This document shows, in pieces, positions 52,925-62,262 of a stretch of DNA of 64,000 nt. Position numbers and translations under genes: made by a program. How positions within the stretch are numbered: the stretch's first letter is position 1; every line of letters starts with the position of its first letter. Below the pieces are notes generated by a model that worked only from the letters and a program-made list of their open reading frames with translations, did not search any database and was not told the DNA's origin. The stretch comes from a virus, in IMG/VR virus record IMGVR_UViG_3300010965_000002, positions 96,001 through 160,000 of that record. One strand, given 5' to 3'.

Positions 52925-54271
52925 ATGCAAATTCACGTTTTAGACCCACAGTACGCGGGTGACCCCGAAGCCGTTGCGATGTTGCAGGCTTTCTATAGCC
53001 GCAGCGGTGAAAGCATTGTCTCTCGCCTCGAACGCCTCGGCAACAATCTGACCGCCGTTAAAAAGGCGTTGCATCGCTACTTCATTGGCTACGGGCATCA
53101 AAGCATCGGTGACTGTGGTGTTGTCACTGTGTTCATTGAAGGCGTGTCTATTCTTGCAGCCAAGGCACTCCAAGAAAACCCTTTGTACAACGGTCAAGAA
53201 TGCAGCACACGCTACATCGAACTCTCAGGCGCTATGCACGTTGGTTCGCCTACGGCTATGTGGTGGCAAGCTGAGTACCACAAGGTACGTGAAGCTGTAC
53301 TCAAAGGTGTGCGTGCCGAGCACCCTTACGAAGCTGGCGACGGTTTCGACATCAACAACCCTGAGCATACCAAGCCTGGCTCGAACTACGCTACTTGGGA
53401 AAACGCAACAACCGCGCGTGCGTTTGACATTGCCCGTGGCTGGATTCCTTGTGACGCATTGACCAATTTGAGTTGGTCTATCACACTGCGCAAAGCAACT
53501 GAAATCACTACCCAACTCAGTGGTCATCCAATGGCTGAGGTACGTGAAATGGCTATCGCCTTGCGCCAGAAACTGTGTGAAGCCTATCCGCATGGTATTG
53601 CTGCACCAACAAAGGCCGACTCCGAACATGCCGAATGGTTGCGTTCAAATCTTGACGCATGGTATTGTTCGCCTGTATTGCCGTTGGACTGCACTGTTGA
53701 CGCAAAGGCTTCTGCACCTTACGCTTGCTTTACGCAAGAGCAGTTGACATTCATCAACAACCGTCCTCGCCATACTCCGTTGCCTCACGGCTTGGAAACG
53801 ATGGCTCACTTTGTTATTCAAGGTCAGATCGACTACGGCACCTGGCGTGACATGCAGCGTCATCGTCGCAACATCGGTCTGCCTCCAGCAGTTCGACCCA
53901 CAGAGTTCCACACTTGGTACTGTGAGCAGGTGCAACGCTACGTTCCTGGTATGGCAGGTGATGACTTCGTGGCTGCCGCTATGAACCAACTGGACAAGCA
54001 AAAGAAGAACGACTGGAATCCCGATGTGTCGCAGTACGACTGTCCACTGGGTACTGTTGTTCCTTACCGCTACGAAATGGGTCTGTCACAAGCCCTGTAC
54101 TTCGCTGAATTGCGTAGTGGTAATACGGTACACGCCATCCTCCGACCGATTGCACAGCAACTTGCTGATGCTTTACGCGGGTACGGTATCCGTGTTGACA
54201 ATGACAATCAACCCGCACGCTTTGATTTGCGTCGCGGCACTCAAACTATTTATGCAAAGGAATCAGCATGA
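52925..54271 (+). CDS. thyX: Flavin-dependent thymidylate synthase (double-domain type)
   Basis: YGHQSI, IEGVSILAAK, QECSTRY, YGTWRDMQRHR. Confidence 0.88.
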   Translation: MQIHVLDPQYAGDPEAVAMLQAFYSRSGESIVSRLERLGNNLTAVKKALHRYFIGYGHQSIGDCGVVTVFIEGVSILAAKALQENPLYNGQECSTRYIELSGAMHVGSPTAMWWQAEYHKVREAVLKGVRAEHPYEAGDGFDINNPEHTKPGSNYATWENATTARAFDIARGWIPCDALTNLSWSITLRKATEITTQLSGHPMAEVREMAIALRQKLCEAYPHGIAAPTKADSEHAEWLRSNLDAWYCSPVLPLDCTVDAKASAPYACFTQEQLTFINNRPRHTPLPHGLETMAHFVIQGQIDYGTWRDMQRHRRNIGLPPAVRPTEFHTWYCEQVQRYVPGMAGDDFVAAAMNQLDKQKKNDWNPDVSQYDCPLGTVVPYRYEMGLSQALYFAELRSGNTVHAILRPIAQQLADALRGYGIRVDNDNQPARFDLRRGTQTIYAKESA

Positions 54272-54549
54272 ACTTCGGTCAAGTCCTAGACGCAATGCAC
54301 GGCGGCAAACGCGCACGCCGCCCTCACATGGCTCCAGGTGTATTCATCTATCTGGTGCCTGGCAGTGAATTCACTGTTAGCCGCGCACCCTTGAATGTCA
54401 TCTATCCAGAAGGCACGCAGATCAAGTACCAGCCCCACATTGACATCGCGTATGGCAGTGGTGTGTGTGGTGTTTGGCCGATGCCTCAAGCTGACGTTCT
54501 CGCTGACGATTGGCAACTCCTCGAAACCTTTACGCCAGGCGCAGCGTAA
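54268..54549 (+). CDS. DUF2829-like protein
   Basis: MNFGQVLDAM.GGKRARR...YQPHID...W...QADVLADDW. Confidence 0.85.
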   Translation: MNFGQVLDAMHGGKRARRPHMAPGVFIYLVPGSEFTVSRAPLNVIYPEGTQIKYQPHIDIAYGSGVCGVWPMPQADVLADDWQLLETFTPGAA

Positions 54550-55524: not shown

Positions 55525-56021
55525 TGAGCGACGAAGAACTTTCACCCGAAGCACATGCACTGTACCAACTGTTTGACTCCCTAGTGACAGACGATTGGGC
55601 TGATGTACACTCGTATGCAGCTTACGTTGCACCCATTGCTCGATGGCTACCTCCACCGAAGTGGAGAGCGTTGTGGCACGAACTCGGGTCACATCACATG
55701 TTGGCCTACAGCGTAAGATCAGGCACTGACTGTGTATCTCGCTGGCGTGATCGCTATCCGTCCAATCCAAAGGACCACTTGTTAACCCAGACGGTCTTTG
55801 TAAATTTGGAAGCACGCTACGCAGAATGGACTACCTTCTGCTGGGACGCATGGAACGAATTCCTACTGTGGTGCGGTATCCAAACCGAAGCCCTTTGGCA
55901 ACTGAACAACGCCTTCTTGATTCTCAGTCAGGCAGGCGTATTAGAAACTCGAAATAGCGGCACCGAAATACGGGTGACGCCAGAAAGCGCAAAATGGAAA
56001 TTAAACAAGGCGTCTACGTAA
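55524..56021 (+). CDS. Hypothetical protein
   Basis: TAATG coupling. Confidence 0.55.
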   Translation: MSDEELSPEAHALYQLFDSLVTDDWADVHSYAAYVAPIARWLPPPKWRALWHELGSHHMLAYSVRSGTDCVSRWRDRYPSNPKDHLLTQTVFVNLEARYAEWTTFCWDAWNEFLLWCGIQTEALWQLNNAFLILSQAGVLETRNSGTEIRVTPESAKWKLNKAST

Positions 56022-56962
56022 TTGGTAACGACGGTAAGAAGAACTGGTTGATGCAGGTCTCCAGCGTGAACGATGGCATGGTTTACGGTCACCTAGACTC
56101 TAACCGTGCATACGCACCTCAGCAAGGTGAGTTCATGCTTAAACAGATCGTTGCCATCTTGGGTGACAAGCCAGCACCTGGTAGTGCTTACGGCTGTACC
56201 ATTGAACCCTTCTGCCGTACACTGGTGCATCCAGATTGGGGCAATGTTCACTGGCACATGCAGATGCCCAAGACCGAAAAGCTGGCGCTGAAAAACGCCT
56301 TGGACTCAGTTGCCAAGAAACTCAACCGGGCAAAGCTCTTTGCCTTCGTAGCAGAAGGCGCTCTTGAACTTGAAGTGCGTCCACCGAAGGGTCGATACAC
56401 AGGCATGTATCACTACAAGATCAAGAACGGTGAGAACCTTGACCGCATGATCTTGCGTCCAAAGATGGGCGTGCCAATGGACTACGTGGTTGCACACGAA
56501 AGCGGGCACGGCGTCTGGTATCGTTTGCTGACACCCTCACAACACGCACGTTGGATTCGCCTCTATCACAGCTATACCAAGCTGCAAGAGTTTGAACCCC
56601 ATCATCTGCGTAAGCTGCGGGATGACTACATTGCCGACAGCGTACCTGTGCGTGACTTTCGAGGTCAACTCGAAGAAGCTCAAGTCCTGCTGTTCGACAA
56701 CCTAATTTCAACTCTGTGCGGCAACACACGATTGACCAATCGCCACCTTGATGTACTTGCTGAGACAGCCTCACTGGAAACTATCAAGGAAAGCTGGCCG
56801 ACGCACATTGAAGACAGCGACTTTGAAATCGCAGTCACTGAATACGGCACTAACAACCCCGAAGAATTCTTCGCCGAAGCCTTTGCTTACTGGTTGCTAG
56901 GTCAGAAACTGCCTAAACGTGTGCAGGCCGCTATGGACAAAACCGTTAAGGCAATAGTGTAA
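55994..56962 (+). CDS. Zincin metallopeptidase-like protein
   Basis: HESGH and downstream TEYG..NPEEFFAEAF. Confidence 0.7.
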   Translation: MEIKQGVYVIGNDGKKNWLMQVSSVNDGMVYGHLDSNRAYAPQQGEFMLKQIVAILGDKPAPGSAYGCTIEPFCRTLVHPDWGNVHWHMQMPKTEKLALKNALDSVAKKLNRAKLFAFVAEGALELEVRPPKGRYTGMYHYKIKNGENLDRMILRPKMGVPMDYVVAHESGHGVWYRLLTPSQHARWIRLYHSYTKLQEFEPHHLRKLRDDYIADSVPVRDFRGQLEEAQVLLFDNLISTLCGNTRLTNRHLDVLAETASLETIKESWPTHIEDSDFEIAVTEYGTNNPEEFFAEAFAYWLLGQKLPKRVQAAMDKTVKAIV

Positions 56963-56971
56963 ATATGCACT

Positions 56972-57169
56972 ATGGACACACTGACTAACTGGCAACTCTA
57001 CTCCTTGGTGGCAACACTGATTACGTTAGCCTGTTGCTTATACCTTCCAAGCAAACTCAGCGGGTTTAACAATCTCGTTGGTTCCATTCTAGTCGCTGCA
57101 TTAGGGCCCATCGTTTGGCCCTTCTGCTTGGCGGCTGTTGTTAAACATTCTCAGAGAAAAACCTCATGA
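56972..57169 (+). CDS. Small membrane protein
   Basis: Two TMs, AALGPIVWP; TGTAAATA at 56958. Confidence 0.55.
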   Translation: MDTLTNWQLYSLVATLITLACCLYLPSKLSGFNNLVGSILVAALGPIVWPFCLAAVVKHSQRKTS

Positions 57170-57855
57170 GCAAAATTCCAAAGCAAGTAGCTGACCTCAA
57201 AGGTGCAAACTACAACCCTCGTTACATCACTGCCAAGCAACTGGCTGCCCTGAAAAAGAGCATCGAAGAATTCGGTGACCTGAGTGGTGTGGTGTTCAAC
57301 CGTTCAACTGGCGTGCTGGTGTCAGGTCACCAGCGTATCAAGTCAATCAAAGGCAAGCCCTCAAAGATCGTCAAGACAACGGTGAAGAAAGACCGTCAAG
57401 GCACTGTTGCCCTCGGTACGATTGAAATCACCGAAGTCGATAAGACAATCACACGCATCCCCTATCGTGAAGTCGAGTGGGATGACAAGCTGCAAGAAAT
57501 GGCTGCTAACGTGGCTGCTAACGCCGCAGGTGGTGAATTCGATCAAGCCAAGCTGGGCGCGATCATGGCTAAACTCGAAAAGGGTAAGTTCGACGTTGAA
57601 CTGACCTCTATTGACAATTGGACAACTGCCAAGGCTATCGGCAAGTTCAAGAAGTCAAAAGACGAAGATGGCGATGGTGAAGGCAGTGCTGGTGACGAAG
57701 AAGAAGGCTTCGCAGTTGTTGACCCTAAAGCAATGGAGTTCCAACATACTTGCCCCAAGTGCAGCTATCGTTGGAGCGACAAGGTGGTCAAGACCGTGAA
57801 GAAAGTTTCTGCGCCCGCTGCACAACCTGCGAAAAAGAAACCTAAGAAGGCTTAA
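57166..57855 (+). CDS. ParB/Srx-domain protein
   Basis: YNPR.I..LKKSIEEFG..VFN..G.LVSGHQR; C-terminal CPKC. Confidence 0.85.
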   Translation: MSKIPKQVADLKGANYNPRYITAKQLAALKKSIEEFGDLSGVVFNRSTGVLVSGHQRIKSIKGKPSKIVKTTVKKDRQGTVALGTIEITEVDKTITRIPYREVEWDDKLQEMAANVAANAAGGEFDQAKLGAIMAKLEKGKFDVELTSIDNWTTAKAIGKFKKSKDEDGDGEGSAGDEEEGFAVVDPKAMEFQHTCPKCSYRWSDKVVKTVKKVSAPAAQPAKKKPKKA

Positions 57856-57857
57856 CC

Positions 57858-58430
57858 ATGACAACCATCGTAGGCATTCGCCGTGAACAACATAAAGAAG
57901 TGTGGATTGGTAGCGACACGCTGTTGACCAGTCCTGGCCTGCGTCTTGGCAAAATGAGTAAGACTGCATTGGTTAATGCAGGTACCGAAGATGAAACCTG
58001 TATAGCTATTGCCGGCCCTGCCACTGCAATCTTGGCGGTACAGGACATCTTGTCCACTCACGACTTCGATGACTGGTCAACTACCTTGGCCGTGTATCGA
58101 AACATTCTGGCAATACACTGCGTTATGAGGGACCACCACGGTCTAATCACGCAGGAGCACGAAGACGATACCTTTGAAAGCTCACAGTTTCAATCAATCG
58201 TGGCTAACTCCCACGGTATGTGGATGACGCTCAATAGCCGAGAAGTCATCCCCGTGGTTAACCTGTGTGCAATCGGTTCCGGTAGAGAAATCGCAATCGG
58301 CGTTGTTGAAGGTATGGGAATGCTTGACCCAGAAGCCACAATCAAACGTGCGCTTATGGTTGCAAGCCAGTATGACAAGAGCACAGGCAAAGAGGCAGAA
58401 ATATGGTCAAACGAAAGAAACCCGCACTGA
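57858..58430 (+). CDS. HslV/proteasome-beta-like Ntn protease
   Basis: MTTIVGI..IGSD..K..AIGSG. Confidence 0.8.
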   Translation: MTTIVGIRREQHKEVWIGSDTLLTSPGLRLGKMSKTALVNAGTEDETCIAIAGPATAILAVQDILSTHDFDDWSTTLAVYRNILAIHCVMRDHHGLITQEHEDDTFESSQFQSIVANSHGMWMTLNSREVIPVVNLCAIGSGREIAIGVVEGMGMLDPEATIKRALMVASQYDKSTGKEAEIWSNERNPH

Positions 58431-58783
58431 CTTTGCGCAAAGCAAAGCAGCTTGCACAGCACATGATAGTAAGCGGCCTCCTCACAAGAGCAGTAGCCGC
58501 TGAAATCGAACGCCGAGGTCTAGTACCTAACGCACAGTTCAAAGCAATCGTTGCGGCCAACGACATCGGTAAGAAGCTGCAAGGCATGTTACCTCAGCTT
58601 GGTATGCAGTTCAAAGATGGCAATCCAGAGTTTCCCTACACTGTTTGGCGTGGCGCAAGTGCGCCTTTCATTCTGGCTACACCGACAATCGTTGCAGAGG
58701 CTGAGGCGCAAGCCTTGAAACTCAGCGACGAGGTGTACACCAGTTTGACAACCGTTGCAGTTGCCACTGAGGTAGCACCATGA
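58403..58783 (+). CDS. Hypothetical protein
   Basis: Operonic ORF. Confidence 0.55.
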   Translation: MVKRKKPALTLRKAKQLAQHMIVSGLLTRAVAAEIERRGLVPNAQFKAIVAANDIGKKLQGMLPQLGMQFKDGNPEFPYTVWRGASAPFILATPTIVAEAEAQALKLSDEVYTSLTTVAVATEVAP

Positions 58784-59916
58784 TTCTCGCTTCCAAAATG
58801 CCTTCAATGGCAGAGATAAACAAGAAAGCCAAGACTGCGAAATTCACCGCTGTCAGTTTCTTTTCTGGTATGGGTGGTGGTAGCATAGGCATGAAAATGG
58901 CTGGCTACTCTGTTCGCTACGCAAACGAATTCGTCCCTGTAGCCTCGGACGTTTACGATGCAAATAGCGGAGGCTTGAAGATTGACCGTCGTGATATTCG
59001 CAAGGTGACTGCAAAGAGCGTTTATGCTTTGAGCAAGATTCCAAAAGGCGAAATCGACTTGATCGAAGCCAGCCCTCCATGCAAGGCATTCAGCAGCACG
59101 CAAGCACGCAAGCAAGGTCGTGACTTCGGTGAAGAAGTTGATTACAGCGAAGGCATCAAACAGCGCGTTGACGATCTGTTCTTTGAATTCTGCCGTGTCC
59201 TCAAACACCTGCAAGGTAAAGTCTTCATTGCGGAGAACGTGCCTGGCTTGGTGAAAGCAATCAACCGTGGATACTTTGTTGAAATCCACGAGGCACTTAC
59301 CAACTGCGGTTACAACGTACAGGCTGTTGTCATTGACCCGTCGCGTCTTGGTGTTCCTCAGAAGCGTGAGCGTCTGATCTTCATGGGCATTCGCAATGAT
59401 CTATACAAAGCCGGATTCCGTCATGCTTGGCCTAAGCCATCAAAGCATGAAACCACCGTTCAGGAGTGCTTGCCGCACATCGAACGCATTAAGACCACCC
59501 GTGGCTACAGTCATGCAAAGTCTCCGAGCCCTACTATTACCGCATCAGATCACAGTATTGGAGAGACTGCAAACTTCTCTTGCGGCGGGTTCGTGGAAAC
59601 CAATGAAGGTGTGTCCCGCAAGTACACCATCGACGAACTGAAAGTTCTCAGCAGTGTGCCCAAAGACTTTGTGTTCCCACCGCAAGAAAAAGAATCGAAG
59701 TCTAAGCACTTCATTCGCAGTTGGGAACGTCTTGGTCGCATTCACGTCCCATTGCAGGTGTATCACATTGCGTCTGAAATACGCAAGAACATCTTAGAGC
59801 CTTACTACCAAAACAAAGGTAAACCAAATGACAACCAAAGCCCTCGAAGCGCAAAGAAAGCGCCAGCAGCAACAAAGCCCTCAGCCAGCAAGCCCGCAAG
59901 TAAGAAGCCGCGATAA
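58780..59916 (+). CDS. C5-cytosine DNA methyltransferase-fold enzyme, probable carboxymethyltransferase
   Basis: FFSGMGGG (I), SPPCKAFS (IV), AENV (VI), QKRER (VIII); motif X reads GRIHVP rather than GNAVP. Confidence 0.88.
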   Translation: MILASKMPSMAEINKKAKTAKFTAVSFFSGMGGGSIGMKMAGYSVRYANEFVPVASDVYDANSGGLKIDRRDIRKVTAKSVYALSKIPKGEIDLIEASPPCKAFSSTQARKQGRDFGEEVDYSEGIKQRVDDLFFEFCRVLKHLQGKVFIAENVPGLVKAINRGYFVEIHEALTNCGYNVQAVVIDPSRLGVPQKRERLIFMGIRNDLYKAGFRHAWPKPSKHETTVQECLPHIERIKTTRGYSHAKSPSPTITASDHSIGETANFSCGGFVETNEGVSRKYTIDELKVLSSVPKDFVFPPQEKESKSKHFIRSWERLGRIHVPLQVYHIASEIRKNILEPYYQNKGKPNDNQSPRSAKKAPAATKPSASKPASKKPR

Positions 59917-60574
59917 GCTCGAAGTCCCTACCGACTGGACTTTCCACAGCAAGAACGTGGCCGACAACTTTGACATCCATGTGCGGGAGCAGTTGCCTTG
60001 GTACGATCTGGCTACAGGCATGGTTGCACACATTGGTCGCCACTATCTGCCTGAGAATGGTTTGATGTACGACTTGGGTGCAAGCACTGGCAATATCACT
60101 CACGCTCTGGCCTCTGAACTGGACAAGCGTAAAGTCAAGGCAATCAGCATTGACAACGCCGAACCCATGAAAGACGTGTGGCGTGGCGTAGGCGACTTTG
60201 AAGTGGCCGACATTCGTGAATACGACTACAAGCCTTACGACTTCTGCGCTTGCTTCCTCGTGTTGATGTTCTTGCCGCCAGTACAGCAGCGTCAGGTGTT
60301 TGAAAAGCTCTACAAGAGTTTGAACCCTGGTGGTGCGCTGGTGATCTTTGACAAGACTGCCTCGTTCAATGGATACCTTGGAACTGTGATGCACCGCGTT
60401 ACTCTGGCAGGCAAAGTTGCTACAGGCGTTCCGTCCGAAGCCATCGTCAAGAAAGAGTTGTCCTTAGCTGGAGCACAACGTCCGATTGACCCTGATGCTC
60501 TCCTGTTCAATCAGTACGGTGTCAAGGAAGTGTTTCGCTTTGGGGAGTTCGGTGGTTGGGTCGCTACAAAATGA
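59828..60574 (+). CDS. cmoA: Carboxy-SAM synthase-like methyltransferase
   Basis: WTF..VADNFD.HVREQLPWY, YDLGASTG, LMFL, LNPGGAL..DK. Confidence 0.8.
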   Translation: MTTKALEAQRKRQQQQSPQPASPQVRSRDKLEVPTDWTFHSKNVADNFDIHVREQLPWYDLATGMVAHIGRHYLPENGLMYDLGASTGNITHALASELDKRKVKAISIDNAEPMKDVWRGVGDFEVADIREYDYKPYDFCACFLVLMFLPPVQQRQVFEKLYKSLNPGGALVIFDKTASFNGYLGTVMHRVTLAGKVATGVPSEAIVKKELSLAGAQRPIDPDALLFNQYGVKEVFRFGEFGGWVATK

Positions 60575-60577
60575 ATG

Positions 60578-60586
60578 CTGTAAATA
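60578..60586 (+). promoter_or_regulatory. CTGTAAATA motif
   Basis: Intergenic, 38 nt before the ATG at 60624. Confidence 0.55.
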
Positions 60587-60623
60587 ACCTGTAGACGAAA
60601 TCAACACCGCGAGGTAAACAAAA

Positions 60624-61043
60624 ATGTTCAATCCTTACAGACACTTAATGTCTAAGGTAACAGCTCTGCTGCGTACCGAAGCCAAAATGAGTGCAGACGA
60701 ACGAAGGGCCAATCAATGGCAACTACTCGTCAAGTTTTGTGACACCCAGATTACTGTCGGCAAAGGTGATGTGAACACCATCTTTGTCCAGATGGGTGTA
60801 AACGGAAAACGCCGCACTTGTTATCCTGATCAGATACTTGAGAAGCTCAGTGAACTGGGTAGCCAGAAGCACCATCGCTACGAAGTTGTCAATGCAGAAG
60901 GCGAGTCAGACATGTTTTTCAGCCTGGTGACTTTGAAGCAGCAAGTTACGCCTGAAAAGGGTATGAAGCTGTACGGTCACACTGACAAGCGTGTGCTTCT
61001 GCATAAAACACATCAAGCCCTTAACGGCTACGACTGGAAATAA
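60624..61043 (+). CDS. Hypothetical protein
   Basis: GAGG RBS. Confidence 0.6.
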   Translation: MFNPYRHLMSKVTALLRTEAKMSADERRANQWQLLVKFCDTQITVGKGDVNTIFVQMGVNGKRRTCYPDQILEKLSELGSQKHHRYEVVNAEGESDMFFSLVTLKQQVTPEKGMKLYGHTDKRVLLHKTHQALNGYDWK

Positions 61044-61044
61044 C

Positions 61045-61962
61045 ATGGGTAAGAAAAACCTAACCAAAGAACAGTTCGCTATGCACACTAAACGTGCTGA
61101 ACGCCTAGCGAAAGTCATGGTTGACCACGTTGCTGGTTTCAAGCCCAAGAAGGTTGCAGTGCTGCTTAGTGCAGGCGTTGACAGTCATGCTTGTCTGTTC
61201 GCAGCAATGCGGGCAAAGAAACAGATCACCTGTTATTCATTCACCCTGGATGATCGCAAGAGCACTGACTTCCGCCTCGCTGAACAAACAGCCGCCGCTT
61301 TCGGCTTGCCTTTTGTAGGCGTAAAGCTATCAACTGATCTACCTGTTCTCAAAGACTACTTGTGGGATGTTTTCAACGTCTACAACACAGGTAGCATCCA
61401 TGTGAACAAGTCAAGCGTCGAATGCCTATGGCCTTTGTACAACGCTTTGAACCGCACTACTGAGGAACACGGTGCGACTATGATCGGCTTCGGCGGTGAT
61501 GCCTTCTTTTGCACCTTGCGTAGTCAAAAGAAACGTCTGCATGAGTACGAACTTGTCAAGCAGGAATACTTCAATAACGTTGTCACCAACAAAGGCGACG
61601 TGCAAACCCTGATGCTTGAGTCATGGCTTGCCAAACACTCACCAAGGCATCGTTTGATTATGCCTTTCCATACCAAAGAAGTCTTCGACATCTTCAAGGG
61701 TATGGGTCCATTTGACCCTGGCTGCAAGCCTATCCAGAAAGCTCCAATTCGCTTAGCCTTCTGGGATGAATTCCAGCAGACTGACGTGCGGGTACATCAG
61801 AGCTTCCAGAAAGGTGACAGCGGTATCTCTGACCACTTCGCAGAACTCCTTATTCCTAGCGATTGGAATACACGAGGACTAAAGAGTGTTAAAGGCGTCT
61901 ACAACGACCTGGAAACTGGTGTTATCCGAAAGCCGGGTCGGTCATTGTTTAGGTCTCACTAA
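61045..61962 (+). CDS. Asparagine-synthetase-like ATP-dependent amide ligase (no glutaminase domain)
   Basis: AVLLSAGVDS, GFGGDAFF, MPF, K.PIR, K.SFQKG. Confidence 0.8.
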   Translation: MGKKNLTKEQFAMHTKRAERLAKVMVDHVAGFKPKKVAVLLSAGVDSHACLFAAMRAKKQITCYSFTLDDRKSTDFRLAEQTAAAFGLPFVGVKLSTDLPVLKDYLWDVFNVYNTGSIHVNKSSVECLWPLYNALNRTTEEHGATMIGFGGDAFFCTLRSQKKRLHEYELVKQEYFNNVVTNKGDVQTLMLESWLAKHSPRHRLIMPFHTKEVFDIFKGMGPFDPGCKPIQKAPIRLAFWDEFQQTDVRVHQSFQKGDSGISDHFAELLIPSDWNTRGLKSVKGVYNDLETGVIRKPGRSLFRSH

Positions 61963-62109
61963 TTTGATATTGTGAAAACGGTTGTGGCACTCCTGCTGTA
62001 GGACCTCAAAAAGGACCTAGAGTGGAACCCAAAGTTTGTGGACACTAATTTCATTATGTAGGACCTTGGTACTACATCCTTTTAACGTTCAATCCTCATG
62101 AGGCCATAT

Positions 62110-62262
62110 ATGAACAAATCTCACGCTCTCCATGCTTTCGCCAACGGCGGCGGCGCTGCTGCTAAGCCTGCCAAAAAGGGCGGCAAAGCTGCTGCTAAAG
62201 GCAAGCCTGCTGCTGGCAAGAAGTCTGCTGCCAAGAAGCCAGTAGCCAAGAAAAAGCGTTAA
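62110..62262 (+). CDS. 50-aa Lys/Ala-rich histone-H1-like protein (not in ORF track)
   Basis: MNKSHALHAFANGGGAAAKPAKKGGKAAAKGKPAAGKKSAAKKPVAKKKR; GAGG RBS, terminator downstream. Confidence 0.75.
   Translation: MNKSHALHAFANGGGAAAKPAKKGGKAAAKGKPAAGKKSAAKKPVAKKKR

Follow-up and report, generated by a model that had tools for sequence, protein, structure and literature searches.

The locus described here raises the question of what a phage does to its DNA with a cytosine C5-methyltransferase homologue that has Arg in place of the Asn of motif X, and whose gene lies beside those for a homologue of the carboxy-S-adenosylmethionine (carboxy-SAM or Cx-SAM) synthase CmoA and an asparagine synthetase-like protein. 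The window analysed is a stretch of 64,000 nucleotides of viral DNA, bases 96001-160000 of the 176,943-bp IMG/VR record IMGVR_UViG_3300010965_000002 (estimated to be 72% complete). Its source is an uncultured PaBG-like jumbo phage, and Pseudomonas phage PaBG is the nearest cultured relative for the genes of the locus. Between positions 57166 and 61962 of the window, every gene is on the + strand and the genes are closely packed. Judging from the proteins encoded, the locus is very probably a CmoA-CmoX-CmoY DNA hypermodification cassette of this PaBG-like jumbo phage. The genes on which the argument turns are:

58780-59916, + strand: C5-cytosine methyltransferase homologue, predicted CmoX, 378 amino acids (PF00145, 1.2e-45)
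59828-60574, + strand: CmoA homologue, predicted carboxy-SAM synthase, 248 amino acids (TIGR00740, 4.7e-22)
60624-61043, + strand: small protein of the phrog_23597 family, 139 amino acids (9.8e-16)
61045-61962 (open frame 60991-61962), + strand: AsnB-like, CmoY-like ligase, 305-323 amino acids (Asn_synthase and QueC matches)

The system to which these genes are to be compared was described recently, with the activity of CmoA, the activity and structure of CmoX, and CmoY as a glycine ligase (Yang et al., Nat Commun, 7 December 2025; PMC12783734). In Synechococcus phage S-B43, the source of SpCmoA, SpCmoX and SpCmoY, 5-carboxymethylcytosine (5cxmC) is formed and then converted to its glycine amide, and 5gcxmC is found in the virions (PMC12783734). 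The first-pass annotation of the window had pointed to a cyanophage CmoA/CmoX/CmoY pathway of this kind, leading to 5cxmC and an amide conjugate, and the published study bears this out. The novelty implied for a non-cyanophage context does not hold: a survey of IMG/VR v4, UniProtKB and MGnify returned 5,615 CmoX, 4,257 CmoA, 2,251 ligase and 1,660 ParBc genes, and thousands of cassettes in phage contigs are already listed (PMC12783734). No other paper on CmoX in this sense was found in the literature searched.

The transferase matches the C5-cytosine methyltransferase domain of Pfam (PF00145), and in an HMMER search against all PDB sequences its best match is SpCmoX (8YF3; E 4.8e-41), with HaeIII and HhaI some 25 orders of magnitude behind (both ~1e-16). 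It is 48% identical to the PaBG protein and 35% identical to SpCmoX. The motifs that could be located in the gene are:

58861-58881, + strand: motif I, FSGMGGG
59071-59082, + strand: SPPC (S98-P99-P100-C101), which contains Cys101 and aligns with S95-C98 of SpCmoX
59233-59241, + strand: ENV
59359-59373, + strand: QKRER
59734-59751, + strand: GRIHVP, residues 319-324, with the Arg320 codon at 59737-59739

The unusual motif X, GRIHVP, is therefore present as first read, and its Arg320 is aligned to R350 of SpCmoX (N304 of HhaI) both by HMMER against 8YF3 and by MAFFT. CmoX candidates have been defined by the SPPC motif together with Arg at position 350; SpCmoX contacts Cx-SAM through F25, E47, F48 and D69 and uses C98 as the nucleophile, and the wild-type enzyme takes Cx-SAM only, the R350N form being inactive (PMC12783734). 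In the alignment the four cofactor contacts correspond to F28, E50, F51 and D72 of the window protein, and every residue named for SpCmoX is present in both the window transferase and that of PaBG. The whole 177-kb record has a single PF00145 gene, the one described here, and no second C5-methyltransferase. With these residues in place the transferase is predicted to be a CmoX, that is, a DNA cytosine C5-carboxymethyltransferase. It ends in a Lys/Ala/Pro-rich tail (residues ~345-378) that is missing from the PaBG and S-B43 orthologues.

The gene for the transferase is arranged differently in other jumbo phages. In those of Erwinia a CmoX homologue lies ~15-18 kb away from CmoA and the ligase. 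In Erwinia phages Alexandra and Y3 and the pEa_SNUABM series, tblastn covers only residues 101-351 of the window CmoX; in Yoloswag the tblastn match falls in two pieces over 2 kb; and the PHROG family phrog_36001, 715 positions long, matches the window CmoX at positions 460-708. These alignments suggest that the Erwinia-type CmoX gene is split, intron-interrupted or fused.

The frame of the CmoA homologue offers a single possible start codon, the ATG at 59828, and its 89-nt overlap with the 3' end of the CmoX gene, already noticed in the first reading of the locus, is therefore real at the level of open reading frames (ORFs). The overlap zone (the first 30 CmoA codons) encodes the Lys/Ala/Pro-rich tail of CmoX in one frame and the N-terminal end of CmoA in the other, and relatives match neither part. 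The top NCBIfam matches of the protein are both CmoA models (TIGR00740, with 4.7e-22 and 78.8 bits, and NF011995), and the top PDB matches are the CmoA proteins of Escherichia coli and Haemophilus influenzae (4GEK, 2.3e-14; 1IM8; 4IWN). The protein also matches phrog_4752 (2.1e-50), and it is 43.6% identical to the CmoA that adjoins a CmoX homologue in Moraxella phage Mcat8. The formation of carboxy-SAM from S-adenosylmethionine (SAM) and prephenate has been established with both E. coli CmoA and SpCmoA. No CmoB was found in the 177-kb record, which also lacks a second C5-methyltransferase, so that the product of CmoA has no tRNA-modifying partner there.

For the ligase, the ATG at 61045 is located one base 3' of the stop codon of the 139-residue protein's gene and the frame is open back to a GTG at 60991. 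AsnB-like homologues start near residue 19-31 of the longer window product, and by this comparison the start is most likely the ATG (305 residues), not the GTG. The Pfam matches are weak (Asn_synthase, 1.8e-07; QueC, 1.2e-05), the match to phrog_26038 is at 1.5e-54, and a PP-loop motif, SAGVDS, is found at residues 42-47. A length of 305-323 residues leaves no room for a glutaminase domain, in line with the initial description of a glutaminase-less asparagine synthetase-like gene. An AlphaFold model computed from a 34-sequence alignment has a predicted local distance difference test score (pLDDT) of 93; in fold it comes closest to carbapenam synthetase, beta-lactam synthetase and the AsnB synthetase domain (E 1e-8 to 1e-6), and the match is between the whole model (305 residues) and the C-terminal ~300 residues of these ~500-residue enzymes. 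The ligase, as modelled, corresponds to the synthetase domain of AsnB with the glutaminase domain missing, and the same description has been given of SpCmoY (PMC12783734). By BLASTP the ligase is 29% identical to SpCmoY (69.3 bits, E 3e-18), and it is 36% identical to the PaBG ligase (150 bits); tblastn searches with the window protein also retrieve S-B43 and its relatives. The residues S73, D75, K122, E126, D152, P229, Q231, K232 and R236 are invariant in the clade of the window ligase and common to SpCmoY. As aligned residues, they fit a similar reaction and do not fix the amine.

In some phages the ligase gene is followed by a gene annotated as an oxygenase, directly in Salmonella phage Sen-NF (4763-5410) and after one small ORF in Erwinia phage Y3 (5595-6233); in Erwinia phage pEa_SNUABM_5 that position is taken by a hypothetical gene of oxygenase-like size. 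The annotation hints at a further modification step in the Y3 and Sen-NF lineages. The Y3 and Sen-NF oxygenase is not homologous to the gene 3' of the PaBG ligase, and that PaBG gene has no match in the window's viral record.

Taken together, these assignments allow a pathway to be proposed. CmoA would, by homology, convert SAM and host prephenate to carboxy-SAM. CmoX would flip out the target cytosine, Cys101 would attack C6, and the carboxymethyl group of carboxy-SAM would be transferred to C5, with Arg320 holding the carboxylate of the cofactor where ordinary methyltransferases have Asn; the product would be 5cxmC in the phage DNA. The CmoY-like PP-loop ligase would then adenylate the carboxylate of 5cxmC with ATP and join it to an amine, giving an amide-capped base. 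This amine may be glycine or another small alpha-amino acid, an assignment to which we give somewhat less than an even chance; free ammonia or another amine is also a possible substrate. The capped product should shield the phage DNA from restriction enzymes; 5cxmC itself protects DNA against HhaI (PMC12783734). Carboxymethylation followed by amidation had been put forward for this locus from the outset, and the homology of its three proteins to those of S-B43 supports that proposal, with the chemistry assigned by homology. The order ParB-CmoX-CmoA-small protein-ligase, which is the same in the window and in PaBG, also supports the cassette.

Several observations weigh against this assignment, or against parts of it. 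The source is an uncultured IMG/VR contig at the estimated completeness given above, and every reaction is carried over from homologues. Between motifs VIII and IX, in the part that recognizes the target, CmoX is divergent from SpCmoX and poorly alignable with it, and for that reason the GC specificity of SpCmoX is not transferable to the window enzyme. The window CmoA is the most divergent of those compared, and its 78.8 bits are below the TIGR00740 cut-off of 193.3. In control searches, however, the proven SpCmoA (115.6) and the PaBG protein (130.5) are also below the cut-off, with E. coli CmoA at 455, and the cut-off is therefore not discriminating for phage CmoAs. The window CmoA also has Glu210 at the position of Arg199 of E. 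coli CmoA, a residue that we take to be a contact to the Cx-SAM carboxylate. SpCmoA, in which this column is flanked by the invariant I195, K198 and L202, has Glu there as well, and PaBG has Arg. Since SpCmoA is a Cx-SAM synthase (kcat 2.33 per second; PMC12783734) with Glu in this column, Arg is not essential there in phage CmoAs. Finally, the published similarity network of the ligases was drawn with edges at 1e-56 (PMC12783734), and the pairwise score of the window ligase and SpCmoY is far below that, so that no direct edge would connect them; by bit score there is probably no such edge between the window and PaBG ligases either. At 29% identity and 69 bits the window ligase is too far from SpCmoY for the glycine assignment to be transferable.

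The gene between CmoA and the ligase may bear on the identity of the amine. It had been regarded as a candidate accessory, and its distribution is in favour of that view: as a neighbour of the ligase it is conserved in 53 phage records. In PaBG a 150-residue homologue (26% identity) likewise separates CmoA from the ligase. Homologues were found by tblastn in 51 of 50,697 phage records (46 from Erwinia phages, two from Dickeya phages, two from PaBG and one from a Yersinia phage), and all 51 are among the 58 records with a ligase homologue by the same method; a profile search added the two records of Erwinia phage pEa_SNUABM_5, hence the total of 53. In every positive record the homologue is 0.1-2.3 kb from the ligase, in a genome of ~260 kb. 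It is upstream of the ligase in the window and in PaBG, and downstream, with genes between, in the Erwinia group. The linkage of the two genes has thus outlasted rearrangement; because the carrier phages are related, the number of independent linkage events is small. At the profile level phrog_23597 is absent from S-B43 and Salmonella phage Sen-NF, and two other Synechococcus phages and a Staphylococcus phage with the ligase gave no tblastn match to the 139-residue protein. No protein of this kind is needed by SpCmoY, whether in E. coli or in vitro (PMC12783734), and the reaction therefore does not depend on one in general.

The AlphaFold model of the 139-residue protein has a pLDDT of 93.4, and Foldseek returned nothing from the PDB at E <= 0.001. 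A fold assignment was attempted with VIA-align and rejected, as the best scores (YkuJ, Z 6.3; Pur-alpha, Z 6.2) cover the N-terminal half only and are below a meaningful level. An exhaustive profile search gave 97 clusters, nearly all of stand-alone proteins of 130-180 residues. In one of them, P0057, the protein is fused to a MarR-like winged helix, possibly by read-through in gene calling; this is a weak hint at DNA association of the family. No longer fused forms were found in the word-indexed database, a scan of viral_contigs with the alignment of the family gave no relatives, and the Atlas gave no lead. With low confidence, we take the 139-residue protein to be an accessory that is specific to its lineage and probably associated with DNA. 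Its gene is preceded by a GAGG Shine-Dalgarno sequence. The promoter motif of its own with which it had been credited was not recovered: no sigma-70-like site is present in the 49-nt gap (60575-60623), the 14-mer and 8-mer of the gap each occur once in the window, and the GGACCT-type motif of the next leader, itself barely above chance, is not in the gap.

These findings bring us to the alternatives to a cassette that ends, as in S-B43, in a glycine adduct. The one that survives best keeps the pathway and changes the amide: ammonia (which would give 5-carbamoylmethylcytosine) or an amine other than glycine would be the substrate, and the jumbo-phage branch, by which we mean the window phage, PaBG and the Erwinia, Dickeya and Yersinia jumbo phages, would make an undescribed hypermodified base. 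We consider this a real contender, with roughly one chance in three. The ligase is distant from SpCmoY and shares only 150 bits even with PaBG; pocket residues differ in several ligase clusters, the amines of which have yet to be identified (PMC12783734); and the jumbo-phage branch carries the linked phrog_23597 protein, which S-B43 does not. Against it, the conserved charged residues of the window clade are all common to the glycine-using SpCmoY. A narrower form of the idea is that the proteobacterial jumbo-phage branch, with its separate CmoY clade and its phrog_23597 protein, makes a cytosine amide other than the glycine adduct, and that the small protein could bring the ligase to DNA or contribute to the choice of a different amine; this we hold to be unlikely, though worth stating.

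A second alternative, which we think improbable, is that the pathway stops at 5cxmC, and that the AsnB-like protein is inactive or acts on a nucleotide, a tRNA or a metabolite. The weak profile matches of the ligase do include QueC and NAD synthetase, and CmoX-CmoA pairs without a ligase are common, as there are 2,251 ligases to 5,615 CmoX in the published survey (PMC12783734). However, the window ligase is homologous to SpCmoY, for which 5cxmC in DNA is a demonstrated substrate, and no free 5-carboxymethyldeoxycytidine (5cxmdC) is left in S-B43 virions (PMC12783734). Moreover, the ligase has been kept beside CmoA in the window, in PaBG, and in the Erwinia, Dickeya and Yersinia jumbo phages.

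That the transferase is an ordinary 5-methylcytosine methyltransferase, with CmoA serving separately, for example in draining host SAM or in tRNA modification, is very hard to sustain, for although its fold and catalytic motifs are all canonical and the CmoA homologue is below the NCBIfam equivalog cut-off, the motif X Asn is replaced by Arg exactly as in SpCmoX, which refuses SAM, the CmoX and CmoA genes overlap here and are syntenic across distant phages, the record has no CmoB, and the proven Cx-SAM synthase SpCmoA is also under that cut-off.

The 5' part of the locus consists of three further genes:

57166-57855, + strand: ParB-like protein, 229 amino acids (phrog_620, 'ParB-like partition protein', 1e-30)
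57858-58430, + strand: HslV-like protein, 190 amino acids (phrog_1040, 2.9e-12)
58403-58783, + strand: ORF without detectable relatives, 126 amino acids (from the ORF list)

The first-pass annotation had a ParB gene followed by the C5-methyltransferase. Both are present on the + strand, but the HslV-like gene and the 126-residue ORF lie between them. The ParB-like protein is 44% identical (E 7e-56) to PaBG_00176, annotated as a ParB-like domain nuclease and encoded directly 5' of the PaBG CmoX. Pfam PF02195 is silent on the window protein even at E 10; a GHQR motif is visible, and the C-terminal tail reads CxxC...KKKPKKA. We consider the protein to be a linked and probably DNA-associated accessory. 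The HslV-like protein matches phrog_1040 ('peptidase HslV family'), reaches E 0.086 with the Pfam Proteasome domain and begins with MTTIVGI; this Thr Ntn-hydrolase homologue probably has no part in the modification pathway. It has no tblastn match in the 50,697 phage records, all Cmo-bearing ones included, and its gene is not in the PaBG or Y3 cassettes. The idea that it stands in as a glutaminase, supplying ammonia to the ligase, was dropped as unsupported, there being no homologue in Cmo-bearing records. The 126-residue ORF, the stop codon of which overlaps the start codon of CmoX, has no Pfam, PHROG or NCBIfam match and no lead in the Atlas. The HslV-like gene and this ORF are treated here as lineage-specific insertions.

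Lys/Ala/Pro-rich tails resembling histone H1 are found at the end of the ParB-like protein (57780-57855, + strand) and at the end of CmoX (59812-59916, + strand), and a 54-residue ORF 3' of the ligase (62098-62262, + strand) consists almost entirely of such sequence; the tails may serve as DNA tethers. Other genes of note lie 5' of the locus. At 52925-54271 (+ strand) a ThyX-like protein of 448 residues, about twice the usual length of ThyX, matches Pfam Thy1 only over residues 13-223 (51.6 bits) and scores 22 bits with the NCBIfam thyX equivalog model, for which the cut-off is 87.9; its C-terminal half is without assignment, and a divergent flavin-dependent enzyme of pyrimidine modification is one possibility for it. 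It is followed at 54268-54549 (+ strand) by a gene for a 93-residue protein that matches Pfam Tad2-like (Thoeris anti-defence 2-like, DUF2829; 3.7e-13), and a DUF2829 gene is also present in the corresponding region of PaBG. At 55994-56962 (+ strand) a 322-residue Zn-metallopeptidase-like protein matches phrog_17197 (6.2e-60) and, below threshold and over 27 residues only, the anthrax lethal factor N/C-terminal domain of Pfam; PaBG_00182, a Zn-endopeptidase, is in the equivalent neighbourhood and is likened to it by annotation and position.

How the locus relates to known systems can be considered at three levels. As a principle, the engineered M.MpeI N374K has shown that a basic residue at the motif X Asn lets a C5-methyltransferase scaffold use carboxy-SAM (PMC12783734). 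M.MpeI N374K is an engineered CpG enzyme with Lys at this position, whereas the window transferase is a natural enzyme with Arg, encoded with its own cofactor synthase and ligase. As a system, the closest described counterpart is that of S-B43. In both, genes for all three enzyme families lie together on a single strand, CmoX has the SPPC motif, the Cx-SAM contacts and the carboxylate-binding Arg, and the ligase is of the AsnB type; the ParB-like gene near the window cassette has its parallel in the 1,660 contigs with such a gene in the survey of Yang and co-authors (PMC12783734). The two differ in gene order (CmoX-CmoA-x-CmoY in the window, CmoA-CmoY-CmoX in S-B43), and identity is low, at 35% for CmoX, 23% for CmoA and 27-29% for CmoY. 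The 139-residue protein and the basic Lys/Ala/Pro tail on CmoX are found in the window and not in S-B43. The phages are also of different kinds, a PaBG-like jumbo phage and a cyanomyovirus, and have different hosts.

As a locus, the nearest counterpart is that of PaBG (Baikalvirus). A megablast search of phage records with the whole locus gave no match. PaBG_00176-00180 are annotated as ParB-like nuclease, DNA cytosine methylase, tRNA (cmo5U34)-methyltransferase, hypothetical protein and asparagine synthase. Their order is identical to that of the window (ParB, 44%; CmoX, 48%; small protein, 26%; ligase, 36% identity), and in both phages a Zn-peptidase gene and a DUF2829/Tad2-like gene are near the cassette. 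In PaBG, however, there is no HslV-like gene and no 126-residue ORF between ParB and CmoX, and in its CmoA the residue equivalent to E. coli R199 is still Arg, not Glu as in the window protein. The PaBG genome paper names the asparagine synthase as a metabolic gene only and does not discuss DNA modification, and a comparative paper on jumbo phages does not discuss the cassette. In PaBG, and in some 50 records of Erwinia, Dickeya and Yersinia phages, genes with the labels 'DNA cytosine methylase', 'tRNA (cmo5U34)-methyltransferase' and 'asparagine synthase' are better understood as CmoX, CmoA and CmoY. With the window, a system described only in December 2025 gains an example from a jumbo phage, one that has a cultured relative in PaBG of Pseudomonas aeruginosa PAO1, and as the amines of the non-glycine ligase clusters are left open in that study (PMC12783734), the jumbo-phage branch is a concrete place to look for them. 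The known mechanism is unchanged by the window cassette: the locus is a further member of the published CmoX-CmoA-CmoY system, plus one small conserved linked gene.

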